Below, in pieces: positions 1 to 17,379 of a stretch of 32,000 bases of DNA; position 1 is the stretch's first letter, and the number at the start of each line of letters is the position of its first letter. Position numbers and translations under genes: made by a program. The stretch spans positions 930,001 through 962,000 of the forward strand of contig NZ_JAGIOS010000002.1 of assembly GCF_017876815.1 (NCBI RefSeq), written 5' to 3'. A model generated the notes under the pieces. The model was not told the DNA's origin. It did not search any database and was given only the letters and a program-made list of their open reading frames with translations. This DNA is from Sinorhizobium meliloti (GTDB taxonomy: Bacteria > Pseudomonadota > Alphaproteobacteria > Rhizobiales > Rhizobiaceae).

Positions 1-333
1 GTCGTCTTCCGGCGCCTGGCGGGCATATCTGGCGAATGCCTCCCGCGCTCCCTGCAAGGTTCCCGAGGGATTGGGCGTGAATTTGAGGACACCTGTCTTG
101 TCCAGATGCTGGTGGACGTCGACGAAGCCCGGCGAGACGAGCGCGCCGCGGAGATCGACGCCGATCACATCCGGGCCCACTTCCAGGCGATGGCCGATGC
201 TGGCGATGCGCCCGTCTTCCCCGACGAGGATATCGCGTTCATCGGCTGCCGCGGCTTCGCCGGCAATCCGGCAGCCACGCAGGAGAAGTGCACGGCGGGC
301 GCCGCCATGACGGGTTCCGAGAACCGTATGCAT
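1..333 (-). CDS. Amidohydrolase-superfamily deaminase/hydrolase (cytosine deaminase / AtzC-like). Only the N-terminal 111 codons are present; the gene runs off the window edge.
   Basis: Hand translation of the reverse strand from the ATG (complement of 331-333): MHTVLGTRHGGARRALLLRGCRIAGEAAAADERDILVGEDGRIASIGHRLEVGPDVIGVDLRGALVSPGFVDVHQHLDKTGV... PGFVDVHQHLD is the strand-1 HxH metal motif of the amidohydrolase fold. GGAG lies 7 nt upstream of the ATG. The ORF is absent from the supplied track because it is open at the window edge. Confidence 0.75.
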   Translation of the reverse strand, partial: MHTVLGTRHGGARRALLLRGCRIAGEAAAADERDILVGEDGRIASIGHRLEVGPDVIGVDLRGALVSPGFVDVHQHLDKTGVLKFTPNPSGTLQGAREAFARYARQAPEDD

Positions 334-348
334 CGAGTGACTCCATTC

Positions 349-389
349 CATTCCGTCTGACCCGTTCCGTCTGGGTCATTCCATCTGGA
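349..389. repeat. Three direct 12-nt repeats (CATTCCGTCTGA / CGTTCCGTCTGG / CATTCCATCTGG) spaced 14-15 bp apart, in the leader/promoter of the edge amidohydrolase gene
   Basis: Read directly at 349-360, 363-374 and 378-389. On the minus (mRNA) strand they read CAGAYGGAAYG x3 and run into GAATGGAG, the SD of the gene starting at 333. The third copy overlaps a CCATC-TG-GATGG inverted repeat (382-393). Confidence 0.6.
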
Positions 390-744
390 TGGAGACTAAG
401 AAGCGACGATTATTGAGGCAATTTCATAATAGATATATATTGTTTCGGTTTTCTCATGAATGTTCCCACGGCACCGCATCCGTCAGTGCAGTGCACGATA
501 TCAAAAGGAACGATATAATATATTATCACGCGTCAGTGTTTTTATCCGCCAAGAAAATCGTATTATCGGCTACCAAGCATGTGTTTTTGCGGAGATTCGA
601 TCCGCAGAAATTCCGGAAGTGATTTCATTTCAGCAAATTTGTGTATGGTGACGCGCCAGGAACCGCGACCAAGTCATGCAATTATCAAAGAGAATACTTT
701 TAAGGCATACATTTACGCGTTTAGCGGCGCGATAATACATAACG

Positions 745-772
745 TTGACATCCAGGCACTCAAGTATAGATT
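745..772 (+). promoter_or_regulatory. Candidate sigma-70 promoter for the GntR / Mo-hydroxylase operon
   Basis: TTGACA at 745-750, a 16-nt spacer, then TAGATT at 767-772. It lies about 30 nt upstream of the first plausible start codon. Pattern match only. Confidence 0.3.
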
Positions 773-781
773 GTTGACAAT
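770..781. promoter_or_regulatory. Candidate GntR/FadR-type operator (ATTGT-TG-ACAAT)
   Basis: 5+5 bp inverted repeat that fits the t.GT-N-AC.a logic of GntR-family operators. It overlaps the putative -10/+1 region just upstream of the GntR gene. Statistically weak on its own. Confidence 0.3.
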
Positions 782-800
782 CTAATCTGGAGTGTTTCGG

Positions 801-1580
801 ATGGCCGCGTCGCCCTTTTTCAGGAGTGCAAGATACCGTCCCCCTGCCGGGGCCGCGATGAGCGGGCCGGAGGCCGAGCAACGTGTCGTCCAGGTCATCG
901 TCGAGGCGATAATGCATCATCGGGTGGCCCCCGGCGCCAGACTGATCGAGCGCGAGCTGGCGATCGCCTCCGGCGCCAGCAGGTCGGCCATACGCAACGG
1001 GCTCATGCGGCTGGCGCATGCGGGGCTGGTGGAACTCAGCCCCAACAAGGGAGCGTCCATCGCCATGTGTTCGCCCGACGAAGCGCGGCAGATATTCGAC
1101 GCGCGCATCGTGATCGAGACGGCGACGGTCGAGAAGCTCGCCGGCACGATCGGCGAGACGGAGCGTGCGCGCCTGCGGTCGTTCGTGGAGGACGAACGCA
1201 ACGCCTATGAAGAGGGCCGCATGGAAGAAGCCCGGCATCTGTCCCGGCGGTTCCATCTGCTTCTGGCGGAAATGGCCGGCAACGACGTGCTGACGGGGGT
1301 GATACGCGATCTCATCAACCGCCAGCCGCTGCTCTCCTGGTCGAGGCCGGATACCGAGCCGCGATTCTGCGGCAATCACGCGCATTCCGAGATCGTCGAA
1401 GCGATAGCGAGCGGAGACGGCGAAAGGGCCGCCCGCCTCAATATGGAGCACCTTCGGGCCTTGGAACGTGAACTGGTGGCCGATCGCGCCGCGGCCATGC
1501 AGGCGTTTCGCTCCGTTCAGGCCAACGCCGCGTCCGGCGAAAGCGCACAACGGGAGGATGGTGACGCCGGTATCGATTGA
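801..1580 (+). CDS. GntR-family transcriptional regulator, FadR subfamily (winged HTH plus FCD domain)
   Basis: ORF 792..1580. The wHTH reads VVQVIVEAIMHHRVAPGARLIERELAIASGASRSAIRNGLMRLAHAGLVELSPNKGASI. The helical C-terminal domain includes RRFHLLLAEMAGNDVL. The start is uncertain: ATG 801 (GGAG 9 nt upstream), GTG 792 or ATG 858. Confidence 0.85.
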   Translation: MAASPFFRSARYRPPAGAAMSGPEAEQRVVQVIVEAIMHHRVAPGARLIERELAIASGASRSAIRNGLMRLAHAGLVELSPNKGASIAMCSPDEARQIFDARIVIETATVEKLAGTIGETERARLRSFVEDERNAYEEGRMEEARHLSRRFHLLLAEMAGNDVLTGVIRDLINRQPLLSWSRPDTEPRFCGNHAHSEIVEAIASGDGERAARLNMEHLRALERELVADRAAAMQAFRSVQANAASGESAQREDGDAGID

Positions 1581-1630
1581 ATCAAGTGCGGAACGCGGCG
1601 GCGTACCGCTGTTTTTGGGAGGAGGAATGC

Positions 1631-2490
1631 ATGAAACCGTTCGAATATTACGAGCCGGCGAGCCTGGCGGAGGCCAGCGATCTCATGAGGCGGCTCGGCA
1701 AGGATGCCAGCATCATCGCGGGCGGCACCGATCTGCTCGTCGAGATGAAGGAGGAGCTTCGCAGCCTCCTTCATCTCGTCAACATCAAGAAGATCCCGAA
1801 CCTGAGGGATTTTACCTATGATCCGGCCGCCGGGCTTCGCTTTGGCGCGCTGGTGACGGTCCGGGAGATAGAGACCTCGCCGCACGTCATCGGCAACTAT
1901 CCGAACCTCGCCAAGGCGGTAAGCCTCCTCGGCTCGGTACAGGTGCGCAACCGGGCAACCATTGTCGGCAACATCTGTCGCGCCTCCCCCTCGGCCGACA
2001 CGATCCCGCCCCTGATCGCCGACGGCGCCAGCCTGTCCGTCTATAATGGAGGCACCGAGCGGACCATTCTGCTCGAGGACTTCTTCACCGGTCCCGGCCG
2101 GACGGTTCTTTCGCCCGGAGATATCGTAACCGGCATATCCCTGCCGGCGCCCCGCCCGACGAGCGGCCGCGCCTACATCAAGCACGGCCGCCGCAAGGCG
2201 ATGGAACTTGCGACCGTCGGCGTTGCCGTCAGCATCGAGCATGTCGCCGGACAATGTTCGGACATCCGCATCGCGCTCGGCGCCGTGGCGCCGACCGTGA
2301 TCCGCGCCCGCAGGACCGAGGACCTTATCAGGGGACGCAGGATCGACGCGGCACTGCTGGCCGAAGCTGCGGAAAGCGCAATGCAGGAAGCCACTCCCAT
2401 CGGCAATGTGCGGGCAAGTGCGGCCTACCGCCGCGACATGGTCGGCGTGCTGACGCGCCGGGCAATCGGTTACGCCATGGGAGGTGCCCA

Positions 2491-2494
<4 letters not shown>
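1631..2494 (+). CDS. Molybdenum hydroxylase (xanthine dehydrogenase family) FAD-binding medium subunit, CoxM-like
   Basis: MKPFEYYEPASLAEASDLMRRLGKDASIIAGGTDLLVEMKE... contains the AGGTDL FAD motif. GGAGGA lies upstream of ATG 1631. The stop overlaps the next start (ATGA at 2491-2494). Confidence 0.9.
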
Positions 2495-2972
<478 letters not shown>

Positions 2973-2976
<4 letters not shown>

Positions 2977-5291
2977 ACACATATGAAAGGATCGATAGAG
3001 ACCTGTCCGACCGGGACTTCACCGTCGTGGGCAAGAGCGTCAAGCGTTCCGATACTCTGGAGAAGGTCACGGGGACGGCCAGATATGCAGGCGACGTCGC
3101 CTTGCCCGGCATGCTCCACGCCAAGATGAAGCGCAGCAACATCGCGCATGCGCGCATCAGGAGCATCGACACGAGCAAGGCGCTGGCGCTCAAGGGCGTC
3201 AAGGCGGTGCTGACGCACGAGAACGTGCCGCGCGTTTTGCATGCGGGCTCACCGCATCCGCGCTCGGCATCCGTTACCAAGGATCAGTACATCCTGGATG
3301 ACAGGGTGCGATATTGGGGCGAGGGCGTCGCCGCAGTCGCTGCCGTCAGCGAGGAAATCGCTGAGCGCGCGGTCGCGCTCATCGAGGTCGAGTACGAGCC
3401 CTTGCCCGGCCTCTTCACCATCGAAGCCGCATCGGTGCCCGGCGCTCCGCCGATCCATGAGAATGGTCTCGACCGGAACCAGGTGTTGCCGCCGGTCTTC
3501 GTCACCCGCGGCGACGTCGACAGGGGTTTCGCCGAAGCGGATCTGATCCTCGAGCGCGAATACGATCTCGGCCGCCCGACACCGGCCTATATGGAGCCCA
3601 ATGTCTGTGTCAGCCAGTGGGACGGCAACGGCAAGCTCACCATGTGGACCTCGACCCAGAGCGCATTCATGGTCCGCGGCACGCTTGCCGAAGTGCTCGG
3701 CGTGCCGCTGAACAAGGTACGCGTTATCGTCGATCACATGGGCGGCGGCTTCGGCGCGAAGCAGGATCTGTTTCAGAACGAGTTCCTCTGCGCCCTGCTC
3801 GCGCGACAGACGGGGCGTCCGGTCAAGATGGAGTTCAGCCGCAAGGAAACGTTCCTCGGCGGCCGCTCGCGACACCCCGGCAAGATATGGCTGAAGCAGG
3901 GCTTCACCAAAGACGGCCGGATCGTCGCACGCGAAGCCAGGGTCACCTTCAACTCCGGCGCCTACGGCTCGCACGGTCCAGGCGTCACCAATGTCGGCAC
4001 CGCAGCGCTGACCTCGCTCTACCGTTGCGAGAATGTCCGGCTGGAAGGCCGCTGCATCTATACCAATTCGCCGATCGCCGGCGCCTTTCGCGGCTATGGT
4101 GTGGTTCAGACCTACTATGCGCTCGACCTCATGATGGACGAGGCGGCCGAGAAGCTCGGCTTCGACCCGGCCGAGTTCAAGTTGATGAACGCGGTGCGCG
4201 ACGGCGACATCGCACCCTCCGGGCATCCGATCGTCGGACACGGCCTCGGGGATTGCATCCGCCGCGTCATGGAGGAGACAAACTGGCACGAATTGCGCAG
4301 GCGGGAGAAGCCGGAAACCGTCAAGCGCCGCGGGATCGGGATCGGCTGCGAAATGCACGGATCCAGTGCCTATCCGGGCATCAAGGAACAGGGCAACGCA
4401 ATCGTGAAGATGAACGAGGACGGAACGGTGACACTGATCACCGGCACCGCCGGCCTCGGCACCGGCGCGCATACAGCGCTTTCGCAGATCGTCGCCGAGG
4501 AACTCGGCGTGCCCTTCGAAGCCGTCTCGGTCGTTCAAGGGGACACCGATATCGTCCCCTGGGATATCGGTGCCTTCGCCAGCCACACGACCTATCTCGG
4601 CGGACGGGCGGCTCAGCTCGCGGCCGCCGACGTGCGCAGACAAGTGCTCGAACACGCCGCGCCCATGCTCAAGACCGAGCCCGAGAATCTCGCGATCCGG
4701 GACGGTTTCGTGGTCGTCACCAACGGCTCCAACCGCAGCATCCGGGTTTCCGAGGCCGTCGGGCCGCAACGGGGGATGCCGGCGGTGCAACTAGTCGGCG
4801 TAGGCACCTACATGCCGACGAAGTCCTACTCCTTCGCCGCCCATTTCGCCGAAGTCGAGGTGGACACCGAGACCGGCGAGGTGGCCGTTCTCGAGGTCGT
4901 TCCGGTACATGAGATCGGCAGGGTCATCCATCCGATCGCCGCGGCCGGACAGATCGAGGGTGGCATTCAGCAGGGCATCGGCCACACCCTCAGCGAGGAT
5001 TACGTCATCGACCTTACCGACGGACGTTCCCTCAATCCGAGCTTCGTCGATTACAAGATGCCCCTGTCGATGGACATGCCGTCCATCCGCACCATCATCC
5101 TCGAGACGGCACCGGATCCCGGCGGTCCCTACGGTGCCAAGGGCGTCGGCGAGGATCCGATCATCGCGATCGGGCCCGCCATCGCCAACGCCATCTACGA
5201 CGCCATCGGCGTCCGCTTCCACCACTACCCGATAACGCCCGAGCAGGTGTTGAACGCTCTCAAGTCCAAAGCCAACGAAACGAGGCAGTGA
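2973..5291 (+). CDS. Molybdenum hydroxylase molybdopterin-binding large subunit, CoxL/XdhB-like (772 aa)
   Basis: [41 protein letters not shown]... with a GGGFGAKQD motif. There is no CODH-type VAYRCSFR loop. This is an internal start within track ORF 2790..5291. Confidence 0.92.
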
Positions 5292-6340
5292 TGCAGACCA
5301 ACCATCTTCAGGACAGCAAAATTCCCGTGACCATCCTGACCGGCTTCCTCGGCGCCGGAAAGACAACGCTTCTCAACCACATATTGACGGAACGGCACGG
5401 TCACCGCATCGCGGTGATCGAGAACGAGTTCGGCGAGGTGGATGTGGACTCGGATCTCGTGCTCGCCTCCGAGGAAGAAATCTACCAGATGAAGAACGGC
5501 TGCATCTGCTGCTTCGTCGATGTGCGCAACGACCTGATCGAGGTTCTGCAGAAGCTGCTTGCCCGAAAGGACAAGTTCGACCACATCCTTGTCGAGACCA
5601 GCGGGCTTGCCGATCCGACCCCCGTCGCGACGGCTTTCTTCATCGATGACGAAATCGGCAAGCACGTAACGCTGGACGGCATCGTAACGCTGGTCGATGC
5701 CAAGCACATAGGCCAGCATATCGACGATCCCGTGCTCGATGGGCGCGACAACCAGGCTGTCGACCAGATCGTCGCCGCCGACCGCATCATCATCAACAAG
5801 ATCGACCTCGTGTCGGAATTAGAGATCGCTCCGCTCGAGCGCGGCATGCGCAAGCTCAACCAGACGGCCGAAATCGTACGCTCGAGCTACGGCAGGGTGG
5901 ATCTGTCGAGCATTCTCGGCATTTCCGGCTTCGCGCCGTCCTACGTGGCCGAGCGCGCCAAGCTGCTCGACCTCGATCATCATCACCACCACGATCATCA
6001 CCACCATGACCATCACCTGCATGACGCGACGGTCAGCTCGGAATCCTTCGTCTTCGACCGGCCTTTCGACCAGGGCCGCCTGACGGACTACCTCTCGGGC
6101 CTGCTTCGGGAGGAAGGCGACGACATCTTCCGAACCAAAGGCATCATGGCGATTGCCGGCGATCCTCGTTTCTTCGTGCTCCAGGCGGTGCACAAGCTGA
6201 TGGACTTCCGTCCGGACCATGTCTGGGGGAAGGACATGCCTTATACGAAGCTGGTCTTCATCGGTCGCAACCTCGACCGGGCGGCGCTGGAAAGAGGACT
6301 GGAGCGTTGCCTCGCCTCGGCGGGCGATACGGACAATTGA
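5288..6340 (+). CDS. COG0523 (CobW/ZigA/YeiR-type) G3E metallochaperone GTPase with a His-rich linker
   Basis: Walker [10 protein letters not shown], metal motif GCICC (5498-5512), Walker [12 protein letters not shown] and a His tract [16 protein letters not shown] (5977-6023). The GTG 5288 / ATG 5291 start overlaps the TGA of the large subunit. Confidence 0.9.
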
Positions 6341-6360
6341 TCCGGGGGAATGACGAGAAC

Positions 6361-6400
6361 CCGCCGAGGCTGGGAGGCTTCGGCGGATTTGTCGTGTTTG
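6361..6400 (+). terminator. Candidate intrinsic terminator of the plus-strand hydroxylase / COG0523 operon
   Basis: 10-bp stem CCGCCGAGGC / GCTTCGGCGG (one G-U pair), 6-nt loop, followed by ATTTGTCGTGTTTG. It starts 21 nt after the stop at 6340. Confidence 0.5.
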
Positions 6401-6473
6401 AGCGGGATTAGCGAATCCCAGTGGACGCAGCCGGATCGAAAAAGGCGAGGAGCACCCCCTTTTGATGGACCTT

Positions 6474-6514
6474 GCATAAAACCGCACCGCCCCCGGCCTG
6501 GCCGGGGGCGGTGC
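6474..6514 (-). terminator. Candidate intrinsic terminator of the minus-strand operon (after the permease), possibly bidirectional
   Basis: 13-14 bp GC stem GCACCGCCCCCGGC / GCCGGGGGCGGTGC (6484-6497 / 6501-6514), followed on the minus strand by GGUUUUAUGC. It lies 28 nt downstream of the permease stop at 6542. Confidence 0.6.
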
Positions 6515-6541
6515 ATGTTGTGCATTCACTTCCGGCTGCGC

Positions 6542-7933
6542 CTAGCCGGGATGCCGCATGGCGCCCTCACCGAGCAAATCCGGCTGCACCTCCTCGCGCG
6601 GAGGAACGCCGTTGAAGAGCAGGTTGAGCAGCACCGCCGAGAAGGTTCCGACGAGAACGCCGCTGTGGAAGAACCGGTCGATGAACTCCGGCAACTGGGC
6701 GAAGATCTTGTCGGCGACCACCGGGATCATCGCGAGGCCGACGCTGACGGCGACGATGTAGAGGTTGCGGCGGTTGTCCACGAAGTTGACGCGGGCGAGG
6801 ATCTTGACCCCCGTCGCCGAGACCATGCCGAACATCACGATCGCGGCGCCCCCGACGACATAGCTCGGTATCGACGCGGTAATGAATGCGATCTTCGGCA
6901 GGCAGCCCAGAAGGATCAGCACCACGCCGCCCGCGGCAACCGCCCAGCGGCTCATCACACCGGTGATCTGGAGCAGGCCCACATTCTGGGCATATGTGGT
7001 GTATGTGAAGGTGTTGAAGATTCCGCCGATAATGTTCCCGAGGCCATCCGTGCGCAGCCCGCGCGCCAGGTCGGCTTCGCTGATCGTGCGGCCTGCCATG
7101 TCGCCGACGGCCAGGATCTGACCGGTCGCTTCGATCATCATGACGATCATGACCGTGCAGAGCGCAACCGTCGCCCACAGGTCGAATATCGGCATGCCGA
7201 AGGCGAACGGCGTCACCACCGTGACCCAGCTAGCATCGGCGACCCCCTGGAAATCCACCTTTCCGAAAGCGACGGCGATCGCAAATCCGATCCCTATGCC
7301 GAACAGAACGGCGAGGTTTGCGAGAAATCCCTTGAGAAAGCGGGTCATCAGGAGAATGGAGACCAGCACGATCGCAGCGACCGCAAGAGCGAAGGGCTCA
7401 CCGTAGGCCGGATTGGGAATGAGCCCGTCGGGGCCTTTTATCATGGGCTGTCCGCCCGCCGCCCAGTTTACTCCGACCCGCATCAGCGACAAGCCGATGA
7501 CCAGCATCACCGTTCCGGTCACCACCGCCGGGAAGAAGCGAACCCAGCGGCTGAAATAGGGGGCGGCCAGAAGTGTGAACACGCCGGATGCGATCACCGC
7601 ACCAAGGACGCCGGGCATTCCGAGGTCCGGATCCGTGCCCGTGGCGATGATCGGGGGAACCGCGGTAAAGCCGATGCCCATCATGATCGGCAGGCGCGCG
7701 CCGACGTTCCAGACGCCGAGACACTGGATGAGGGTGACGATACCGCAGCAGAAAAGATCCGCGCTGATCAGCATGGCGATCTGATCCTTGGAGAGATTCA
7801 GCGCGCTGCCGATGATCAGGGGAACCGCGATGGCACCGGCATACATCACCAGGACATGCTGCAGGCCGAGCGCCGCCAGTTTCGGCGCGGGAAACATTGC
7901 TTCGATAGCATCACACTTCGAGTCCGTATTCAT
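6542..7933 (-). CDS. NCS2-family nucleobase:cation symporter (xanthine/uric acid permease-like)
   Basis: 463-aa polytopic membrane protein. The NCS2 signature region reads YAQNVGLLQITGVMSR. N-terminus: LGLQHVLVMYAGAIAVPLIIG. GGGAGGAG lies upstream of ATG 7933. Confidence 0.88.
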   Translation of the reverse strand: MNTDSKCDAIEAMFPAPKLAALGLQHVLVMYAGAIAVPLIIGSALNLSKDQIAMLISADLFCCGIVTLIQCLGVWNVGARLPIMMGIGFTAVPPIIATGTDPDLGMPGVLGAVIASGVFTLLAAPYFSRWVRFFPAVVTGTVMLVIGLSLMRVGVNWAAGGQPMIKGPDGLIPNPAYGEPFALAVAAIVLVSILLMTRFLKGFLANLAVLFGIGIGFAIAVAFGKVDFQGVADASWVTVVTPFAFGMPIFDLWATVALCTVMIVMMIEATGQILAVGDMAGRTISEADLARGLRTDGLGNIIGGIFNTFTYTTYAQNVGLLQITGVMSRWAVAAGGVVLILLGCLPKIAFITASIPSYVVGGAAIVMFGMVSATGVKILARVNFVDNRRNLYIVAVSVGLAMIPVVADKIFAQLPEFIDRFFHSGVLVGTFSAVLLNLLFNGVPPREEVQPDLLGEGAMRHPG

Positions 7934-8011
7934 TTCGCTCCTCCCATTGTTTTTCCAAGAGCCTTCCGCCGAACCCCGACCCTCCTCCGGCCGATGAACG
8001 GGCGGTATTCC

Positions 8012-8644
8012 TCACCTCATCTTCACCTCGACATCTTCACGTCGAGTGTCAGGGACGGCAGCGCGCCGCCCGCTCCATCGATGTGCGAGCCCGGTATCGA
8101 TATCGAACAGATCGAGGACGCGGGCCACGGTATGATTGACCATCTCGTCCAGCGTCTGCGGACGGGCATAGAAGGCCGGGACGGGGGGACAGATGATCGC
8201 CCCCGCCTCCGTCGCCTGGGCCATCGAACGAATATGGCCGATATGCAATGGCGTCTCGCGCAGCATGAGAACCAGCCGGCGGCGTTCCTTCAGTGTTACA
8301 TCCGCCGCCCGGGACAGTAAGCCGGAGGTTACACCGGTCGCGATTTCCGACAGGGTCTTGATCGAGCAGGGTGCAACGATCATCCCGAGCGTGCGGAAAG
8401 AACCGCTGGAGCACGAAGCGCCGATGTCCTTGTTGGAATGGACGCAGGCGGCGAGGGCTTCGACGTCGGCGACCTTGAAGTCCGTTTCCATCGCCAGCGT
8501 GATCTGGGCGGCACGGCTCATCACCAGATGCGTCTCGATGTCCAGATCGCGCAGGATCTCCAGGAGCCGGATGCCGTATATCACGCCGGAGGCGCCGCTG
8601 ATGCCGACGATGATCCGCTTTCTCTGTTCCCGGTCCGCCTTCAT
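8012..8644 (-). CDS. ubiX: UbiX-family flavin prenyltransferase (prFMN synthase)
   Basis: MKADREQRKRIIVGISGASGVIYGIRLLEILRDLDIETHLVMSRAA... is typical of UbiX/Pad1. I moved the start to ATG 8644 (GGAGG 8 nt upstream) instead of the track's TTG at 8659. Confidence 0.88.
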   Translation of the reverse strand: MKADREQRKRIIVGISGASGVIYGIRLLEILRDLDIETHLVMSRAAQITLAMETDFKVADVEALAACVHSNKDIGASCSSGSFRTLGMIVAPCSIKTLSEIATGVTSGLLSRAADVTLKERRRLVLMLRETPLHIGHIRSMAQATEAGAIICPPVPAFYARPQTLDEMVNHTVARVLDLFDIDTGLAHRWSGRRAAVPDTRREDVEVKMR

Positions 8645-8674
8645 CGCTCTCACCTCCAAGCGCCGCTATTCAGT

Positions 8675-10048
8675 CTAAGGACGGCCGAATTTCGCGAGAA
8701 TCGCCGAAGCGCGGTCGAAGGCGGCCTCGTCGATCCTGGCGAGCACGCCGTGAAAATCAGGCCCGCGGGTCGCGTCGAGGCCCATGCGGGACGTCGTACC
8801 GATACCGGATGCCGAAGGATCGAGCGCGTTGCCGGGCAGCCCTTCGATGATGACGACATCCTTGTGCGGCTGGAAATGGGCGGACATGGCCCAAAGCACG
8901 TCGGAGTCCCGCGTGATGTCGACGTCGGCATCGACCGCGATGACCGTCTTCAGATAGGCGTCCCAGCCGAGCAGCCCGAGCATGATCTGGCGGGCCTCGC
9001 CGGGCCTCGTCTGGTTGAGGGCGACATAGGCATGAAAATGCGTGCCGGATGCCGGATAGTGCACCGCCGTCACGCTCGGGAAGCGTTGCTTCAGCTTTTC
9101 CACCATCTCCGCCTCACGCGGAATACGGCCGAGATTGAGGTGTTCGGACGAGTTGCCGCCGGCAACGCTGACCAGGATTGCGTCCTTGCGGCGCAGGAAG
9201 GTCTCGACGCGAAACAGATTGTTCGTCGACCGGTCGGACGAGTAGCCGGTGAACTCTCCGAAGGGCCCCTCGGCAACCTGCGCTTCGGGCTCGATCACCC
9301 CTTCCAGGACGATTTCGGCATAGGCCGGAACCCGGATGCCGTATTTCGGCGTCCGTACCACCTCGAGCGGCTCGCCGATGAGGCCGCCGGCGACGTCGCG
9401 CTCGTCTTCACCGAACGCCAGGCGCGCCGAGGCTGCGATCATGAAGAGGGGATGTGCGCCGATGACCATGGCGACCTTCAGTTTCTCGCCGCGGTCCTTG
9501 GCCATGTTGAGCAGCCGCCACAGATGTCCGCGCGAATGCAGGCTCGTCGCCAGCTCGTTCTTCGAATGGATCATCGCGCGGTGATAGCTGAGATTGCCGG
9601 CGCCGGTTTCGGGATGCTCGGCGATGATTATGCCGCTGGTGATGTATTTCGCCCGGTCGGTCGCGAAGTGCTTCAGCATCGGCAGGGTGCCGAGGTCGAT
9701 GTCGTGCTCCTCCACGCATTCGGTGACCGGCCCGCCATCGACCAGCCGCGGCGGCAGGGCTTGCCGCGAGCGTGCCTGATAGGCTTCGTGCAGCCGGTCC
9801 TGGGAGGTCCCGAACATCCGGGCGATCCGCTCGCGCGATCCGAAGGTGTTGGCAATCACTTCGCCGCCGACGCCTTCGACGTTGCGGAAATGCAGGAGCG
9901 GCGCCCGGCCTTGCTGGTTGAGCTTCCAGATGAACGCCGACGCGTCCTGATCGTCCGTGATACAGTCTTCGATGGTGAGTACGTCTTCGGGATACGCCTT
10001 CTGGTATTCCCGGAGAAAGTAGCGGACGTCCTGGCTGCCGAACTCCAT
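8675..10048 (-). CDS. UbiD-family (prFMN-dependent) reversible decarboxylase, 457 aa
   Basis: UbiD hallmarks are present: GNLSYHRAM, MVIGAHP, ERDVAGGLIGEPLEVV and EGPFGEFTGYSS. It sits immediately upstream of ubiX on the same strand. Confidence 0.88.
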   Translation of the reverse strand: MEFGSQDVRYFLREYQKAYPEDVLTIEDCITDDQDASAFIWKLNQQGRAPLLHFRNVEGVGGEVIANTFGSRERIARMFGTSQDRLHEAYQARSRQALPPRLVDGGPVTECVEEHDIDLGTLPMLKHFATDRAKYITSGIIIAEHPETGAGNLSYHRAMIHSKNELATSLHSRGHLWRLLNMAKDRGEKLKVAMVIGAHPLFMIAASARLAFGEDERDVAGGLIGEPLEVVRTPKYGIRVPAYAEIVLEGVIEPEAQVAEGPFGEFTGYSSDRSTNNLFRVETFLRRKDAILVSVAGGNSSEHLNLGRIPREAEMVEKLKQRFPSVTAVHYPASGTHFHAYVALNQTRPGEARQIMLGLLGWDAYLKTVIAVDADVDITRDSDVLWAMSAHFQPHKDVVIIEGLPGNALDPSASGIGTTSRMGLDATRGPDFHGVLARIDEAAFDRASAILAKFGRP

Positions 10049-10086
10049 AATACTGCCCTTCGCGGTGTCGTTTACTTCACATGAGC

Positions 10087-10165
10087 GGGCAGCGGCCTTG
10101 GAGGGAGCCGCTGCCCTGGAGCGGGATGAGGAAAATGCGGGCGATGTTCCGCCCGAATCCCGCTC
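10087..10165. repeat. Structured intergenic element: two adjacent GC-rich stem-loops between amidohydrolase A and UbiD
   Basis: Stem 1: GGGCAGCGGC (10087-10096) / GCCGCTGCCC (10107-10116). Stem 2: GAGCGGGAT (10119-10127) / ATCCCGCTC (10157-10165), with a nested CGGGCG (10138-10143) / CGCCCG (10150-10155). No U-tract follows on either strand. Confidence 0.55.
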
Positions 10166-10189
10166 TGACTTTTGGATCGCCAGGGCCGA

Positions 10190-11131
10190 TCAGGCGGGAG
10201 TAGGCTGGCGCTCCTCACGTCTCAGACCCGCATAGGTATCGGTCAGGCGCGCCTGAGCTTCCTCGAGATTGCGTGGCGGAGGGGTCGGGTCGATGCCGAC
10301 GAGCTTGGCGATGTTGTTGCCGAGATAGCCCTCGAGATCTTCCTCGGAAAGGCCGAGGCCGTGGGGCGGTTCGTGGCACAGAACCTCGAGCTCTCGCAGC
10401 CACATGCCGGGCTCGTTCGGCGGCGAGTCCGTACCGAAGACGATCTTGTGTTTCGGCAGCTCTTTCGCGAATTCGACGATGCGGGATTGGAAGCACCAAC
10501 CGGACTCGCAGTAGACGTTGGGTGTGTCCATCGCCATCCAGAAGGACTCGAACGAGTAGTTGCCCCCGGTCTGGATCCCGAAATGCCCGATGATGAAATT
10601 GACCATCGGGAACTCGCGAATGATCGGATAGAACATCGTCGGAATGGTGTAAGGCCCATCACCGGTGTGGATGAGCACGACGACGCCGAGTTCCGCGCAC
10701 TTCTTCATCGCCGGGCGCAGCCAGTCGAGGGCCCGGTCGGGCCGGTAACCATGCATGTTGGCATGCAGCTTCAGCATCTTGAAGCCGTATTCCTTGACAT
10801 GGAATTCGAGCTCGGCCGCGCCGTTTTCCGGCCCCCAGCGGGGATTGTAGTTGAAGTTGCCGATGAAGCGGTCCGGGTATTTCTGGCAAAGTTCGGCGAT
10901 ATACGCCATGTAATCGCGGATGCCTTCGCGGCCCATGCGGTTGCCGTCGCGATAGCCTGTATTGCCGGGCGGCGGCTGGATGAAGCCCATGTCGATCCGG
11001 CGAGGCTTGCCGTTGATCATATAGGGTCCGTCCATCAGCTTCAGCATGCGCTCGCCGTTGAAGGGCGTGCCGGTGTGGCGCCATGCCTCGTCGACCAGAT
11101 TGGTCGGGTGGAGGTGGGTATCGATGATCAT
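10190..11131 (-). CDS. Amidohydrolase_2 (PF04909, ACMSD/LigI-type) metal-dependent hydrolase/decarboxylase, paralog A, with an intact HxH motif
   Basis: MIIDTHLHPTNLVDEAWRH... Candidate later metal/catalytic residues lie in LIHTGDG, IGHFG and FGTDSP. GGAGA lies 7 nt upstream of ATG 11131. Confidence 0.85.
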   Translation of the reverse strand: MIIDTHLHPTNLVDEAWRHTGTPFNGERMLKLMDGPYMINGKPRRIDMGFIQPPPGNTGYRDGNRMGREGIRDYMAYIAELCQKYPDRFIGNFNYNPRWGPENGAAELEFHVKEYGFKMLKLHANMHGYRPDRALDWLRPAMKKCAELGVVVLIHTGDGPYTIPTMFYPIIREFPMVNFIIGHFGIQTGGNYSFESFWMAMDTPNVYCESGWCFQSRIVEFAKELPKHKIVFGTDSPPNEPGMWLRELEVLCHEPPHGLGLSEEDLEGYLGNNIAKLVGIDPTPPPRNLEEAQARLTDTYAGLRREERQPTPA

Positions 11132-11170
11132 GCTATTTCTCCGATTTCATGAAACGCGCGTGCGGAAGGC

Positions 11171-12097
11171 TCATGCCGGCTGAAGGCTGGCATGGGTGCC
11201 GTTGAGGCGCGCCTGCGCCTCCTCCACGCTGCGTGGCGGCGGCGTCGGATCGAGACCGATCATCCGGGCGATGTTGTTGCCGAGGTAGTCCTCGAGCGTA
11301 TCCTCGTCGAGGTTCAGCCCCTGGGGCGGCTCGTGGCACAGCACCTCGAGAAGGCGCAGCCACATACCCGGCTCGTTCGGGGGCGTGTCGGTGCCGAACA
11401 GGATCTTGTGCTTGGGCAGTTCCTTGGCGAATTCGACGATGCGCGACTGCAGGCACCAGCCGGATTCGACATAGATGTTCGGCGCATCCATCGCCATCTG
11501 GAACGGCTCGAAGACATAGACGCCGCCCGTCTGCACGCCGAAATGGCCGAGGACGAAATTGACCGACGGAAACTCTCGGATGATCGGATAGAATTCGGTC
11601 GGGATGCTGTACGGTCCGTCGCCGGTATGCACCTTCACGATGAGGCCGAGGTCGGCGCATTTCCGCATCGCGGGCCGCAGCCAGTCGAGCGCCCGGTCGG
11701 GACGGTAGGCATGCATGTTCGCCTGAAGCTGCACCATCTTGAAGCCGTATTCCTTGGCGTGGTGCTCGATTTCTTCGGCGCCGTTCTGCGTGCCGTAGCG
11801 GGGATTGTAGACGAAGCAGCCGAGGAAGCGGTCCGGATATTTCTGAACGAGCTCGACGGTGTAGGACATGTAGTCCCGGATCGCCGCCTTGCCGGTGAGA
11901 TCGCCGTAACCGTCGGTGTAAATGGTGTTGCCCTGCGGGGGCTGGATGAAAGCTTTGTCGATGCGGCGCGGCTTCCCGTTCACATAATAAGGGCCGTCCA
12001 TCATCTTGAGGAGGCGCTCACCTGTAAAAGGCTCGCCATCGTGCCGCCAGGCCAGATCCACAATCTTGGTCGGGTAGCAGCTAATGTCGATAATCAT
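11171..12097 (-). CDS. Amidohydrolase_2 paralog B, with HxH replaced by SxY (MIIDISCYP); putative non-catalytic or altered-metal partner subunit
   Basis: Collinear with paralog A along its whole length, by eye roughly 70 percent identical. It retains KVHTGDG, LGHFG and FGTDTP. I moved the start to ATG 12097 (GGAGA 5 nt upstream), which aligns exactly with the MIID start of A. The track uses TTG 12121. Confidence 0.82.
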   Translation of the reverse strand: MIIDISCYPTKIVDLAWRHDGEPFTGERLLKMMDGPYYVNGKPRRIDKAFIQPPQGNTIYTDGYGDLTGKAAIRDYMSYTVELVQKYPDRFLGCFVYNPRYGTQNGAEEIEHHAKEYGFKMVQLQANMHAYRPDRALDWLRPAMRKCADLGLIVKVHTGDGPYSIPTEFYPIIREFPSVNFVLGHFGVQTGGVYVFEPFQMAMDAPNIYVESGWCLQSRIVEFAKELPKHKILFGTDTPPNEPGMWLRLLEVLCHEPPQGLNLDEDTLEDYLGNNIARMIGLDPTPPPRSVEEAQARLNGTHASLQPA

Positions 12098-12387
12098 CAG
12101 TCTCTCCAGAGTTGCCGTCAATCCAATTCACGGATTGTCCATGAGCGAAGCGCCCCGGAGTTCGACGTCAACTTTGCTGAAGGCGAGGTCAGAAAGATCC
12201 GTCGGGCTGCGGTCTGCGCGATCGCATGTCAGCAATTCCCGACCGGATGTTGTATCGTGAGATACTAACGCGGCTGACCGCTTCTACTGACGTGGAGAAT
12301 ATTAAGACAGCTTAGAGGGAATGAAAAGTACATTTCATCAAACTGATCAATTAATAAATAATTCGAAAGAATTCATTCTGTGAGCGG

Positions 12388-12903
12388 TTGCTCAGCGGAG
12401 TACAGGCATTGGACGACACCGCAAAAGAAAACGCAGAGTTTCCCGCTGCAGCCGGAATCCTCCTCGGCCTCGGTCTCGGGGGCTTCTTCGACGGCATCGT
12501 TCTGCATCAGGTGCTGCAGTGGCATCACATGCTGAGCAGCGCAGGCTTTCCACCGGACAGCCTGGAAAACCTGAGACTGAATACGTTCTTTGACGGCCTC
12601 TTCCATATGGGCACATACGTTTTCGTCGTGCTGGGCCTGATCGTTCTGTGGCGCAGGGGGCGGCGGAGACCCCTGCTTTGGTCGGCAAAGCTTATTGCCG
12701 GTACCTTCCTCATCGGGTTTGGCGGCTTCAACCTGATCGAGGGCACCGTCAACCACCAGATTCTCGGCCTGCATCATGTCAACGAGACCGTGCCGCGCGA
12801 TCAGTGGGTCTACTGGGACACAGGCTTTCTTCTCTGGGGAGCCTTGATGCTGATTGCCGGGTGGGTCCTGTACCGGTCCGGTAAACGAGACCTTTCGAGA
12901 TGA
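12388..12903 (+). CDS. DUF2243-family small integral membrane protein
   Basis: AGILLGLGLGGFFDGIVLHQVLQWHHMLSS is the motif I associate with DUF2243, and several hydrophobic segments follow. The only in-frame starts are TTG (12388 or 12409) with no clear SD, so the start is uncertain. Confidence 0.6.
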   Translation: MLSGVQALDDTAKENAEFPAAAGILLGLGLGGFFDGIVLHQVLQWHHMLSSAGFPPDSLENLRLNTFFDGLFHMGTYVFVVLGLIVLWRRGRRRPLLWSAKLIAGTFLIGFGGFNLIEGTVNHQILGLHHVNETVPRDQWVYWDTGFLLWGALMLIAGWVLYRSGKRDLSR

Positions 12904-12922: not shown

Positions 12923-13804
12923 TCACAGCAGCCGGTGCCGCACCAGAATTTCCCGGATTTTTGCGTCCTGCTCCTCGCTCGGAAGCAGTGCCGGCTGGCG
13001 GGAGGCGCCGACGGAGGGATCCTGCAGGTAGAGCGAGCGCTTGACGAGGGCCGGCGGGAAGCCGAGGGCGTAAAGCTCGGTGCGGAAGGCGGTGTAGATT
13101 GCCTGCTGGCGTTCCGCCTCCGCAATGTTCCCGCTGTTGAACGCGCTGAGAATGCCGGCGAGCACCTCCGGCATGGCGTTGCCGAGGCCGGAAATGCAGC
13201 CGGCCGCACCGTTCTGCAGCGACCAGAGAACCAGATGGTCGGGGCCGGAATAGACTTCGAAGCCCGGCACGTCGCGCGCTACCTGCAGATAGGCGTCGAG
13301 AGTATCCTGCGCACCGCCGGAATCCTTGATCCCGGCGATATTGCCGTGCGCGGAAAGCTTCAACGCCGTCTCCGGCTCGATATGGTTCTGGGTGCGGGAG
13401 GGAATGTCATAGAGATAGACGGGGGTCTCCACGGCATCGGCGACCGTCGAGAAGTGCCGGATCAGGCCGTCCTGCGTACAGGCGATGAAGAAGGGGGTGA
13501 TGACGGCAATGCCGCTGACGCCGATGCGGTCGAAGGCGCGCGCGAGCTGCAGCGTCTCGAAGGTCGCGGGCATGCCGGCATTGACGATGACATCGACGCG
13601 GCCGCCGACCTCGTCGACCACTTCCTCGGTGAGGCGGATCTTCTCCTCGTGCGTGAGCGCGGTGAAGTCGCCATTGGTGCCGGCGCACATGATATTGTTG
13701 CCGGCGGCGACCTGCCGGCGTACCTGGGCGCGGGTCGCCTCGTAATTGATGGTCTCGTCCTCGTTGAAGCAGGTGACGAGGGCGACGAAGGCTTTCTTGG
13801 ACAT
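12923..13804 (-). CDS. DHDPS/NanA-family class I (Schiff-base) lyase/aldolase
   Basis: GTNGDFTALTHEEK, LYDIPSRT and the Schiff-base lysine context AGIKDSGG. The start ATG overlaps the TGA of the upstream ATPase gene (TGATG at 13802-13806). Confidence 0.85.
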   Translation of the reverse strand: MSKKAFVALVTCFNEDETINYEATRAQVRRQVAAGNNIMCAGTNGDFTALTHEEKIRLTEEVVDEVGGRVDVIVNAGMPATFETLQLARAFDRIGVSGIAVITPFFIACTQDGLIRHFSTVADAVETPVYLYDIPSRTQNHIEPETALKLSAHGNIAGIKDSGGAQDTLDAYLQVARDVPGFEVYSGPDHLVLWSLQNGAAGCISGLGNAMPEVLAGILSAFNSGNIAEAERQQAIYTAFRTELYALGFPPALVKRSLYLQDPSVGASRQPALLPSEEQDAKIREILVRHRLL

Positions 13805-15450
13805 CAGTGACTCCGCTTTGGGATAAGAATGTCGGCTGCCTCGGCCGGTACCGATGCGAGGTGGCCGGCCTTTGCATCCGGATCGGGACTGAGGCTGGCG
13901 GCGAGAAGGGCGCGGGTATAGGCCTGCCGCGGCGTATCGAAGACCTCGCGGACGGTGCCGAGCTCGACGACCTCTCCCTGCTGCATGACCATGACGTAAT
14001 CGGCGAAATCGCGAACGACCGGCAGGTCATGGGCGATGAAGATGAAGGCGATCCCCATCTCGCGGCGCAGCCTGTCGAGAAGCTCGATCACCTGCGCCTG
14101 GACGGAGACGTCGAGCGCGGAAACGGCCTCGTCGCAGATGATCAGGTGCGGCTCGAGCGCAAGCGCCCGGGCAATGGCGATGCGCTGCCGCTGGCCGCCG
14201 GAAAACTGGTGCGGATAGCGGCTCATGTGCTCGGCCGAAAGACCGACCTGCACCAGGAGCTCCGCGACGCGTTCACGCCACTTTGCCTTGGGCAGGATGT
14301 CCGGATGGATGACCCATGCCTCGGAGATCAGCTGGTAGACCGTCATGCGCGGGTTGAGCGACTGGGTCGGGTCCTGGAACACCATCTGGAGGTCGCGCCT
14401 GAGCTTGTAGAGCTCTGCCGGCGAAAGCGTGAACAGGTCGCGGCCCTTCCAGAGCGCCGTGCCGCCATCCGGCTCGTCGAGACGCAAAAGGGCACGGGCA
14501 AGCGTCGATTTGCCGGAGCCGCTCTCTCCGACGACAGCCATGGTCTCGCCGGGCATCAGATCGAAGGAGATGCCCTTCAGCGCTTCGAAGGAGCCGTAGG
14601 TCTTGCGCACGTCGCGCACGCTGAGCAGGGGTTCGGCGCGCGCGCCCGGTTCGTGCATCGCGCCCTTGCCCGGGGCGGCGGCGATGAGCTTCTGCGTATA
14701 GGGATGCTGCGGGTTCTTGTAGATCTCGCGCACGGTTCCCGCTTCGACGATGGCGCCCTTTTCCATCACGACGACCCGGTCGGCGATCTCGGAGACGACG
14801 CCGAGATCGTGGGTGATGATCAGCACCGCCATGCCCGTTTCGCGCTGCAGCTCCTTCAGAAGCTTCAGCACTTCGGCCTGCACGGTCACGTCGAGCGCGG
14901 TGGTCGGTTCGTCGGCGATCAGGAGGTCCGGCCGGAGCGCCAGCGCCATGGCGATCATGACGCGCTGGCGCTGACCGCCGGAGAATTCGTGCGGATATTT
15001 GCGCATTGCCCGCTCGGGCTCGGGGATTCCGACGCGGCGAAGGAGCCGCAGCGCCTCTTCGCGCGCCTTGCTGCCGGCGAGCCCGTGAGTTGTCATGGCT
15101 TCGGAGATCTGCCAGCCGACGCTGTAGACCGGATTGAGATGGCTGAGCGGATCCTGAAAGATCATGGCGACCCGGCGGCCGTTGACCTCGCGCCGTTCCT
15201 CGGCAGGCATCGTCAGCAGGTCCCTGCCGTCGAGCAGGATTTCGCCGGCGCTGATGCGGCCCGGCGGCATGTCGATGAGGTTCATGATCGCCGAGGAGGA
15301 GACGGACTTGCCGGAACCGCTTTCGCCGAGGATCGCCAGCGTCTCGCCCTTGTCGAGGTGATAGGAGATCGACTTCACGGCATGGACCACGCCGGCCGCG
15401 GTGTGGAACTCGACGGAGAGGTTACGGACCTCGAGCAGATGTTCAGCCAT
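13804..15450 (-). CDS. ABC transporter ATP-binding protein with two fused NBDs (peptide/opine/nickel PepT type)
   Basis: 548 aa. Contains two Walker A motifs (GESGSGKS twice), two signature motifs (FSGGQRQR twice) and two Walker B motifs. Confidence 0.92.
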
Positions 15451-16366
15451 TTTTGCCGCCCTTCATTTCGAGACGCCAGCGCTGTACCGGATCGAGCGCG
15501 ATCCGCATCCAGTTGGACAGCAGGTTGAGCGACATGGTGGTGAGAATGATGGCAAGGCCGGGCCAGAAGGAGAGCCACCAGGCATTGGTGAGATATTGCC
15601 GGCCCTGCGAGATCATCAGGCCCCAGGTGATTTCCGGCGGCTGGATGCCGATGCCGAGGAAGGACAGCGCGCTCTCCGCCAGCATGACATAGGCGAAATC
15701 AAGCGTGGCGAGCGTCGTCAGCGTCGGCAGCACGACCGGCAGGATGTGGCGGAACAGGATTCGCTTGCTGGAGGCGCCCATGACCCGGGCAGCCTGCACG
15801 AACATGCGCTCGCGGATCTCGAGCACTTCGGCGCGCGTGGTGCGCAGATAGACCGGAATGCGGGTGATGGCGAGCACCAGCATGAGGTTGAGGATCGAGG
15901 AGCCGAGCACATAGAGTACGATCACCGCGATCAGCAGAGACGGGAAGGACATGATCACGTCGGCGAGACGCATGATGATCTGGCTCATGCGTGGCGAGGA
16001 AAAGCCGGCGATGAGGCCGAGAACCGTGCCAATCACCGAGGAGAGGATCACGGCGCCGGCGGCGACCATCAGGGTGTTCTGAGCGGCCACGATGATGCGG
16101 GCGAAAAGCGGACGGCCGAGCGCGTCGGCCCCCATCCACCAGACCCAGGTGCGGGTCCAGTCGAATGGCGGCAGGTTGCGGCCGCGCAGGTTCTGCTTCG
16201 TCGCGAGGTCGCCCAGCCAGGCCGGACCGATGATGGCTATGGTGAGAATGACGAGAAGGAAGATCGCCGCGCAGAGCGCGAACTTGTCCGCCAGCAGCAT
16301 GCGCATCATGCGGACCGGGAAGGACGGCTCTGCGGCGATGACATTGTCGGTGGTTGCCAGGCTCAT
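15443..16366 (-). CDS. ABC transporter permease (DppC/OppC-like)
   Basis: Polytopic protein of the binding-protein-dependent transport family (an EAA-like loop region is visible). I moved the start to ATG 16366 (MSLATTDNV), which has GGAGG 8 nt upstream and lies just after the stop of the upstream permease. Confidence 0.88.
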   Translation of the reverse strand: MSLATTDNVIAAEPSFPVRMMRMLLADKFALCAAIFLLVILTIAIIGPAWLGDLATKQNLRGRNLPPFDWTRTWVWWMGADALGRPLFARIIVAAQNTLMVAAGAVILSSVIGTVLGLIAGFSSPRMSQIIMRLADVIMSFPSLLIAVIVLYVLGSSILNLMLVLAITRIPVYLRTTRAEVLEIRERMFVQAARVMGASSKRILFRHILPVVLPTLTTLATLDFAYVMLAESALSFLGIGIQPPEITWGLMISQGRQYLTNAWWLSFWPGLAIILTTMSLNLLSNWMRIALDPVQRWRLEMKGGKNG

Positions 16367-16379
16367 GGTCGTTGCCTCC

Positions 16380-17294: not shown

Positions 17295-17379
17295 GGCAGC
17301 CCTCGATTTTGCATGAGGCGGCGGGGGTCCCGCCGCCGGAAGGTCTTCATTTCGAATGGCCGCTCGTCCGCGGTTCAGA

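Follow-up and report, generated by a model that had tools for sequence, protein, structure and literature searches.

The DNA analysed here is a 32,000-nucleotide stretch of Sinorhizobium meliloti (contig NZ_JAGIOS010000002.1, positions 930,001 to 962,000), referred to below as the window. At its left end lie two convergent operons that encode a molybdenum hydroxylase, a COG0523 GTPase, a pair of amidohydrolases, UbiD- and UbiX-family proteins and a nucleobase permease, together with a deaminase gene transcribed divergently from the first of them. Judged from its sequence, this locus is very probably the S. meliloti version, carried on pSymB, of the catabolic pathway that leads from pterins and lumazine to xanthine in Cupriavidus sp. 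LA-1 (Doi, Maeda and Takaya, Commun Biol 2025, PMC12391406).

The replicon is pSymB: identity of the window is 100% to the pSymB-type replicons NZ_CP123006.1 and NC_017326.1 (the SM11 record) and 99.3% to strain 1021 pSymB at 141005-153205. The gene content listed in the original prediction, which was made from the letters of the DNA, was borne out, since an open reading frame (ORF) listing and Pfam and NCBIfam scans agree and place all the genes it named essentially where it had put them. The distal amidohydrolase starts at ATG 12097 (MIID, conserved in Cupriavidus), the position given in the gene list of the original prediction, and not at 12121, where that prediction had ended the locus. 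We also found that the locus extends further on both sides, with the rest of the deaminase gene and an ATP-binding cassette (ABC) transporter of the BMP family to the left and a riboswitch to the right (Table 1).

Table 1. Features of the locus; enzyme names and LA-1 equivalents follow the assignment proposed in the text.
Feature	Position	Strand	LA-1 equivalent	Basis
Cytosine-deaminase-like amidohydrolase, N-terminal 111 codons (gene crosses left window edge)	1-333	-		Pfam Amidohydro_3
Sigma-70-like promoter and palindrome, putative GntR/FCD operator	745-784	+		Sequence pattern, cross-genus conservation
GntR/FCD transcriptional regulator, first gene of plus operon	801-1580	+		Pfam GntR, FCD
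LuDH FAD-binding subunit	1631-2494	+	LA1_0147	Pfam FAD_binding_5, CO_deh_flav_C
LuDH [2Fe-2S] subunit	2491-2976	+	LA1_0146	Pfam Fer2, Fer2_2
LuDH molybdopterin-binding large subunit	2973-5291	+	LA1_0145	Pfam Ald_Xan_dh_C, MoCoBD_1, MoCoBD_2
COG0523 GTPase	5291-6340	+	LA1_0143	Pfam cobW, CobW_C
Terminator-like hairpin ending plus operon	6361-6386	+		Sequence
Terminator-like hairpin ending minus operon	6483-6515	-		Sequence
NCS2 nucleobase:cation symporter	6542-7933	-	LA1_0149	Pfam Xan_ur_permease; NCBIfam pbuX
UbiX flavin prenyltransferase	8012-8644	-	LA1_0144	Pfam Flavoprotein; NCBIfam UbiX
UbiD-family XCDC	8675-10048	-	LA1_0150	Pfam UbiD_N, UbiD, UbiD_C
DHLI beta, catalytic Zn-binding subunit	10190-11131	-	LA1_0151	Pfam Amidohydro_2, full length
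DHLI alpha, non-catalytic but required subunit	11171-12097	-	LA1_0152	Pfam Amidohydro_2
Xanthine (NMT1-motif) riboswitch aptamer	12225-12294	-		Rfam RF03054

Correspondence with the lumazine cluster of Cupriavidus

In Cupriavidus sp. LA-1, a lumazine-induced "cluster I" (LA1_0140 to LA1_0152) converts pterin and lumazine to xanthine, as established with purified LuDH, DHLI, XCDC/UbiX and PDA and with an LA1_0145 knockout (PMC12391406). Lumazine dehydrogenase (LuDH; LA1_0145 to LA1_0147) is a three-subunit Mo/FeS/FAD enzyme that takes lumazine through 7-hydroxylumazine to 6,7-dihydroxylumazine; it is NAD+-dependent, draws its oxygen from water, and is essential for growth on lumazine. The 6,7-dihydroxylumazine isomerase (DHLI; LA1_0152 and LA1_0151), an alpha2beta2 Amidohydro_2 enzyme, turns this product into xanthine-8-carboxylate. 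Its beta subunit binds zinc through His6, His8 and Asp235, and its alpha subunit lacks both histidines yet is required. The GTPase LA1_0143 renders recombinant DHLI soluble and active. The UbiD-family xanthine-8-carboxylate decarboxylase (XCDC; LA1_0150), with the UbiX protein LA1_0144, then converts xanthine-8-carboxylate to xanthine, and is inactive on 2-furancarboxylate and 2,5-furandicarboxylate. The cluster further encodes a pterin deaminase (PDA; LA1_0140), two nucleobase-type transporters and two regulators, and import of lumazine and 7-hydroxylumazine is predicted for the NCS2 transporter. In Rhizobiales and Rhodobacterales, related clusters lie on plasmids or chromosomes and have a cytosine-deaminase-like (CDA-like) gene in place of the PDA gene (PMC12391406).

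The window holds the core functions of cluster I (three LuDH subunits, DHLI alpha and beta, GTPase, UbiD, UbiX and NCS2) and a deaminase. As a proxy for LA-1 in tblastn identity comparisons we used a replicon of Cupriavidus campinensis MJ1 (L002/L083), which has the published gene order: alpha, beta, UbiD, NCS2, a LysR regulator, FAD, FeS, Mo, UbiX and GTPase, followed by further genes and ending with a second NCS2 and a PRK12393-type deaminase at the PDA position. Identities to the C. campinensis counterparts are given in Table 2. The original prediction had held that no characterised pathway uses this whole set of parts, and had named beforehand the mapping of the set to such a pathway as what would refute it; the whole set maps to the LA-1 cluster, and that view has been overtaken. 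Pterins and lumazines were among the candidate substrates it listed, in agreement with cluster I. The arrangement in S. meliloti differs from that of LA-1 in several respects: there are two convergent operons on a megaplasmid, one NCS2 permease is encoded rather than two, and the deaminase is CDA-like rather than of the PRK12393 type and is coupled to the BMP-family ABC transporter.

A close relative of the UbiD protein is encoded in 477 genomes in a scan with one genome per species. We fetched 64 full-length loci, with 10 kb on each side of the UbiD gene, and counted the other components in them (Table 2). The CDA-like deaminase and the BMP-family transporter are mostly found in the same loci. 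Across alpha- and betaproteobacteria, the LuDH-GTPase and DHLI-XCDC units are linked, though they are convergent, tandem or divergent depending on the genus. Units that are shuffled yet remain linked are not chance neighbours, so the proposal that the two convergent units form a single N-heterocycle catabolic pathway stands, and the chance adjacency that a check of neighbourhood conservation might have revealed is contradicted.

Table 2. Identity to C. campinensis counterparts (tblastn) and occurrence near the UbiD gene.
Component	Identity	Loci
DHLI beta	86%	64/64
DHLI alpha	78%	64/64
LuDH Mo subunit	74%	
LuDH FeS subunit	68%	
LuDH FAD subunit	57%	
LuDH, all three subunits		56/64
UbiD	67%	
NCS2 permease	61%	33/64
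GTPase	60%	58/64
UbiX	58%	50/64
CDA-like deaminase		16/64
BMP-family ABC transporter		16/64
GntR homologue (44-97% identity)		15/64

The two amidohydrolases, which had been read as decarboxylases or hydrolases of the ACMSD or PicC kind, correspond instead to the catalytic beta and non-catalytic alpha subunits of the ring-contracting isomerase DHLI. In an alignment, the beta protein begins with MIIDTHLH, has His6, His8 and Asp235, and is encoded next to UbiD. The alpha protein begins with MIIDISCY and is missing both metal-binding histidines, which reproduces the published distinction between the two subunits. Alpha is 73% identical to the window's own beta, and its Amidohydro_2 match begins at residue 83 of the 316-residue ORF (TTG 12121), or about residue 75 of the protein that starts at ATG 12097. 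There is no NCBIfam model for either subunit, which explains their generic database names. A PDB sequence search found no DHLI structure, the nearest entry being LigW with an E-value of 3e-7 over about 110 residues. LigW, ACMSD, iso-orotate decarboxylase and PicC share with DHLI beta the Amidohydro_2 (PF04909) fold and an N-terminal HxH plus Asp site, but the sequence similarity is remote, DHLI requires both alpha and beta in a heteromer whose second partner has lost the histidines, and its reaction is a ring opening and ring contraction (an isomerisation) rather than a decarboxylation.

On the LA-1 data, the COG0523 GTPase is a maturation factor of the isomerase and not an accessory of the molybdenum enzyme (PMC12391406). 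Clusters of this type are described as always having such a GTPase with DHLI beta; the window has one, as do 58 of the 64 related loci. The S. meliloti protein has a Walker A motif at residue 71, a CICC (CxCC) motif and a His-rich tract, as expected of a zinc chaperone, and we infer that it acts as a zinc-insertion or folding factor for DHLI.

The UbiD gene lies directly downstream of beta, as LA1_0150 follows LA1_0151, and a UbiX gene is present whose product passes the NCBIfam UbiX cut-off (272.5 versus 188 bits). The UbiD protein contains the motifs N152-x-S-x-H-R157 and E260-G-P-F-G-E265, which we take to correspond to the metal and prenylated flavin mononucleotide (prFMN) site of Fdc1 and to its catalytic Glu-Arg-Glu residues. 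The closest solved structure is 6h6v/6h6x (E-value 1e-65), which has a generic name in the search output and is presumably HmfF. Like HmfF/HmfG, XCDC is a prFMN-dependent decarboxylase of a heteroaromatic acid with a dedicated UbiX; the product of XCDC, in contrast, is a purine, and the locus lacks the CoA ligase, hydratase and oxidase genes of the hmf cluster.

All three LuDH subunits, which make up a hydroxylase of the xanthine-oxidoreductase family, are present, and their genes are translationally coupled through overlapping start and stop codons. The Mo subunit has XdhA as its best NCBIfam match, with 664 bits against a cut-off of 780, and the XdhA, XdhB and XdhC matches of the subunits all remain under their equivalog cut-offs. 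The low XdhA score fits the published placement of LuDH outside the canonical xanthine dehydrogenase group (PMC12391406). In a PDB sequence search, the nearest solved structure to the Mo subunit was the alpha subunit of 4-hydroxybenzoyl-CoA reductase.

The NCS2 permease passes the NCBIfam pbuX cut-off (531.6 versus 414 bits) and contains QNVGLLQITG at residue 316; in line with the prediction for its LA-1 counterpart, it would import lumazine or hydroxylumazine. The deaminase is 431 residues long in pSymB (context from CP140921), and its position in the cluster, divergent from gntR, is the arrangement described for Rhizobiales in PMC12391406. Its NCBIfam match to the cytosine deaminase model PRK07583, at 249 bits, is below the cut-off of 403, and its closest solved structures are cytosine deaminases and AtzC (E-value about 1e-40). 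We consider it the putative pterin deaminase of the cluster. A precedent for pterin deamination by CDA-like amidohydrolases, to which the window protein also belongs, is Arad3529 of Agrobacterium radiobacter K84 (Fan et al. 2013, cited in PMC12391406). Arad3529 is not among the 120 best homologues of the window deaminase, all of them at least 64% identical to it, and a sequence search with the deaminase matched no solved Arad3529 structure.

To the left of the window, at 3275-7985 of L001 (CP140921 pSymB), the deaminase gene is followed by co-oriented genes for a substrate-binding protein of the BMP family, two permeases and an ATPase. Deaminase and transporter together look like a module for pterin uptake and deamination.

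A xanthine-type riboswitch and a putative GntR operator

The original prediction missed two regulatory elements, a xanthine-type riboswitch and a putative GntR operator. The 5' leader of the DHLI-XCDC-UbiX-NCS2 operon carries the riboswitch, which ends 127 nt before the alpha ATG and matches Rfam RF03054 over the full model length (43.4 bits against a gathering score of 36; E-value 1.4e-6). Members of this xanthine (NMT1) class bind xanthine, urate and 8-azaxanthine and are reported to act as OFF switches for genes that generate oxidised purines (Yu and Breaker 2020, PMC7373994), and their pocket recognises the ligand by its uracil-like edge and its O6 (Xu et al. 2021, PMC8266621). The window element likewise precedes genes predicted to generate an oxidised purine. 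Because xanthine would be the product of the operon, the riboswitch gives independent support for the functional assignment, and its position suggests end-product feedback.

The element has the P1-J1-P2a-J2-P2b architecture of the class, with the 5' junction GUAGAAGCGGUC and a 3' junction ending in AUUGCU. The 3' junction reads GGGACAUUGC in the RF03054 consensus, GGGAAUUGC in the window and GGAGAUUGC in betaproteobacterial and Devosia copies, so that one junction position departs from the consensus, with A or G in DHLI leaders in place of C. Conservation of the aptamer extends to S. medicae and Ensifer sp. USDA 6670. From 13 leaders of DHLI alpha genes we built a covariance model, and with it we found full-length relatives directly upstream of DHLI alpha in about 30 alpha- and betaproteobacterial loci, including Sinorhizobium, Mesorhizobium-type, Devosia, Herbaspirillum, Herminiimonas, Paraburkholderia and Cupriavidus loci, that of C. 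campinensis among them (L002 11769-11843, L003 7742-7813, L078 7728-7802 and about 25 further loci). Most relatives before DHLI genes fall short of the Rfam gathering score, and the copies examined outside Sinorhizobium score below it or are missed by the Rfam model. Covariation supports the aptamer fold: in the 13 leaders 98.4% of cells pair, whereas slid controls reach 24-60%, and compensatory changes are seen at four pairs, located in P1 and at the base of P2b. GUAGAAGCGGUC and AUUGC are invariant in the leaders preceding DHLI alpha. Riboswitches go unmentioned in the pathway paper (PMC12391406), although homologous elements occur in Cupriavidus loci as well.

A long leader, of about 110-220 nt, is common to all DHLI-associated NMT1-like RNAs. 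Compared with shuffled sequences, the S. meliloti leader shows no significant gain in stability of its minimum-free-energy fold (z = -1.46). In Shinella, Ensifer adhaerens, Aminobacter, Rhizobium and Mesorhizobium loci (L014, L018, L022, L026, L030, L038 and L047), we found a "mini" NMT1-like hairpin without P2, GAGUAGAAGC(A/G)CCGACAAUUGCUCAC, about 220 nt upstream of the DHLI alpha ATG and followed by a highly conserved long leader. This mini form may be a degenerate remnant or a distinct variant.

Within the S. meliloti leader, at 12189-12227 on the minus strand, an AUG directly follows the 3' strand of P1, with GGGA 9 nt upstream, and opens a 12-codon ORF (MRSRRPQPDGSF, then stop) whose conservation covers S. 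medicae and Ensifer sp. USDA 6670; betaproteobacterial leaders lack it. It could encode a leader peptide or be the remnant of an earlier gene start. Two further features are offered as leads: judged by eye, the 5' flank of P1 seems able to pair with the Shine-Dalgarno region (as UCUCCA/UGGAGA in Sinorhizobium and as UUGUC/GACAA in Mesorhizobium-type leaders), and there is a CCCGAC "anti-aptamer" segment. Downstream in the operon, in the 141-nt gap between DHLI beta and UbiD, a GC-rich hairpin with a short T-rich tail (10138-10155, minus strand) may be an internal attenuator or an element of mRNA processing or stability that sets the DHLI:XCDC ratio.

Nitratireductor and Mesorhizobium-type loci contain a second NMT1-like element (L005 4509-4566, L006 4500-4563, L009 4475-4540, L012 4823-4882), located before an NMT1/THI5-like ABC transporter that adjoins the cluster. 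The transporter consists of a solute-binding protein, a permease and an ATPase (Pfam check in L009), and these genomes lack the NCS2 permease, which hints that the riboswitch-associated transporter imports pteridines or xanthine. NMT1/THI5-like transporters and PRK12393 amidohydrolases are known riboswitch-associated classes whose association is unexplained (PMC7373994), and the gene at the PDA position in Cupriavidus belongs to PRK12393. DHLI, XCDC and UbiX are not named among the gene classes in that study; it lists "metallodependent amidohydrolases (hutI)", a class that might include some of these genes.

A more speculative idea, to which we give a low but real chance, is that the DHLI-associated NMT1-like RNAs form a distinct functional subclass that senses a pteridine-pathway metabolite sharing the uracil-like face of xanthine. 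The ligand might then be xanthine-8-carboxylate, 6,7-dihydroxylumazine or 7-hydroxylumazine, and the expression platform might be different, perhaps ON-type or Rho-dependent. On a wider view, much of the unexplained xanthine-riboswitch regulon, with its NMT1/THI5-like transporters and PRK12393 "isoxanthopterin-deaminase-like" amidohydrolases, may be a pteridine-catabolism regulon.

The second element precedes the plus operon. A sigma-70-like promoter upstream of gntR (TTGACA, 16 nt, TAGATT; 745-772) is overlapped by a perfect 8+2+8 palindrome, TAGATTGT-TG-ACAATCTA, at 767-784. Its core, GATTGTNNACAATC, occurs 13 times in 12 related loci, compared with about 0.1 occurrences expected by chance in 1.6 Mb, and tblastn finds a GntR homologue in 10 of these 12 loci; among the 12, L001 is S. 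meliloti pSymB itself and L044 has no GntR match. Amaricoccus (L044), Roseibium (L053) and a metagenome-assembled genome of the Rhizobiaceae (L058) each have a copy immediately before the DHLI leader; in the window, a search allowing up to 3 mismatches found no second copy before the minus operon. The GntR/FCD regulator probably represses the plus operon, to which its own gene belongs together with those of LuDH and the GTPase, by binding at 767-784 until a pathway compound releases it. Between the deaminase gene and gntR, the divergent region (334-800) is unusually long, at about 465 bp, and AT-rich, with several TATA/ATAATA-rich stretches; GC content is 0.56 over the first kilobase and about 0.64 nearby.

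Proposed pathway and competing readings

These comparisons lead us to propose the following scheme, in which the enzyme chemistry is that of Cupriavidus sp. LA-1; the activities in S. meliloti, the substrates of deaminase and transporters, the effector of GntR, and the ligand and polarity of the riboswitch are inferred, and the gene identities, diagnostic residues, synteny and co-conservation are observed here, as is the RNA element with its fold. Pterins such as isoxanthopterin would be imported by the BMP-family ABC transporter, the NCS2 permease or both, and the CDA-like amidohydrolase (1-333 and beyond) would deaminate them to the matching lumazines. LuDH (1631-5291) would hydroxylate lumazine at C7 and then at C6, with oxygen from water and NAD+ as acceptor, giving 6,7-dihydroxylumazine (tetraoxypteridine). 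DHLI (12097-10190), matured or metallated by the GTPase, would use its beta zinc site to attack the C7 amide and would reclose the ring as an imidazole, yielding xanthine-8-carboxylate. XCDC, with prFMN supplied by UbiX, would remove CO2, and the resulting xanthine would enter ordinary purine catabolism encoded elsewhere. The riboswitch would couple expression of the minus operon to the end product of the pathway or a close analogue.

Several observations weigh against this assignment. Literature searches turned up no report of growth, gene expression or enzyme activity in S. meliloti with lumazine or pterins; mentions of SMb20127 to SMb20138 are incidental, and the few of SMb20128, SMb20129 and SMb20132 are uninformative. 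Orthology to LA-1 is argued through C. campinensis and the text of PMC12391406 rather than through LA-1 sequences. The deaminase belongs to another amidohydrolase clade than the Cupriavidus PDA (PRK12393), and its pterin activity is assumed by analogy to Arad3529. The regulator is of the GntR/FCD type with a palindromic operator, where C. campinensis has a LysR-type regulator at the LA1_0148 position. The aptamer, at its distance of 127 nt from the start codon, does not overlap the ribosome-binding site, a spacing that is unusual for the class. Finally, in 31 leaders the accessibility of the Shine-Dalgarno sequence and AUG showed no consistent trend between ensembles with the aptamer enforced and free ensembles (mean change -0.01; 5 up, 6 down).

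The same protein families might act on another N-heterocycle, such as a carboxylated or aminated purine, pyrimidine or pyridine, with the likeness to cluster I reflecting shared ancestry, which is essentially the position of the original prediction. The unlike deaminase and regulator types could be taken in this sense, as could the lineage-dependent cluster composition, from which differing substrate ranges have been suggested (PMC12391406), and the fact that in S. meliloti itself the assignment draws on sequence and not on experiment. We nevertheless judge this improbable, since the 86% and 78% identities of the DHLI subunits and their exact residue pattern are far above the level at which Amidohydro_2 enzymes usually switch reaction, the whole eight-gene core is syntenic and co-conserved, and a xanthine-class riboswitch in the leader fits a xanthine product. 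Published heterocycle clusters that use some of the same parts did not fit: among the 14 cluster and flanking genes there is no furoyl-CoA ligase, hydratase or HmfH oxidase as in the hmf cluster, and no PicB monooxygenase or PicD dioxygenase as in the pic cluster. The hmf, pic and nicotinate/quinoline readings were rejected, the whole set mapping to the lumazine cluster.

An ordinary xanthine catabolic locus, with the Mo enzyme as xanthine dehydrogenase, the permease as xanthine importer and the remaining proteins as accessories, is less probable again, and we think it very unlikely. It would account for XdhA and XdhB as best NCBIfam matches, for the pbuX score of the permease and for the xanthine riboswitch. 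All three Xdh matches fall short of their equivalog cut-offs, however, and the orthologous LuDH has an activity of 3.7 U/mg on lumazine versus <0.1 U/mg on xanthine (PMC12391406). UbiD/UbiX and the alpha/beta isomerase, moreover, are not needed for xanthine catabolism and yet are the most tightly linked parts of the locus (64/64). That the plus unit (GntR, Mo hydroxylase, GTPase) and the minus unit are functionally unrelated neighbours is hardly credible, for although they are transcribed convergently with a terminator each and S. meliloti has no GntR operator upstream of the minus operon, LuDH and the GTPase recur within 10 kb of the UbiD gene in varied orders and orientations (56 and 58 of the 64 loci), the plus-unit GTPase serves the minus-unit isomerase (PMC12391406), and the operator precedes the DHLI leader in L044, L053 and L058.

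The remainder of the window holds other loci. A DUF2243 membrane-protein gene (12409-12903, plus strand) separates the proposed pteridine cluster from the next locus; outside the closest Sinorhizobium and Ensifer relatives it is not present beside the cluster. The next locus (12923-24309) is a separate catabolic one that encodes a DHDPS-family lyase, a peptide/opine-type ABC transporter (SBP_bac_5, two permeases, double ATPase), a BNR/sialidase-like protein, a PdxA-family dehydrogenase, an Fe-alcohol dehydrogenase, a GntR/FCD regulator and an SBD_N/NBD_C protein, presumably of the four-carbon acid-sugar kinase family. This locus is similar to those for the use of acid sugars or amino sugars. 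Further right lie genes for a LuxR-type response regulator, a FIST-domain sensor protein and a PAS hybrid histidine kinase (24900-29073) and for a fused SoxY-SoxZ protein (30275-31087, minus strand).

Beyond the published pathway, our analysis adds the assignment on S. meliloti pSymB, the putative GntR operator and the recurrent NMT1-type riboswitch before DHLI genes. The assignment would give a specific, testable function to eleven pSymB genes with generic annotations such as "amidohydrolase family protein", "UbiD family decarboxylase" and "xanthine dehydrogenase family protein". The riboswitch link gives a reason for several gene associations of the NMT1/xanthine riboswitch that have been puzzling, and the DHLI-leader RNAs provide a set of natural aptamer variants for studies of ligand specificity. 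As for ecology, pteridines such as folate breakdown products and insect or plant pigments may be within reach of this nitrogen-fixing plant symbiont, which could draw purine nitrogen and carbon from them.

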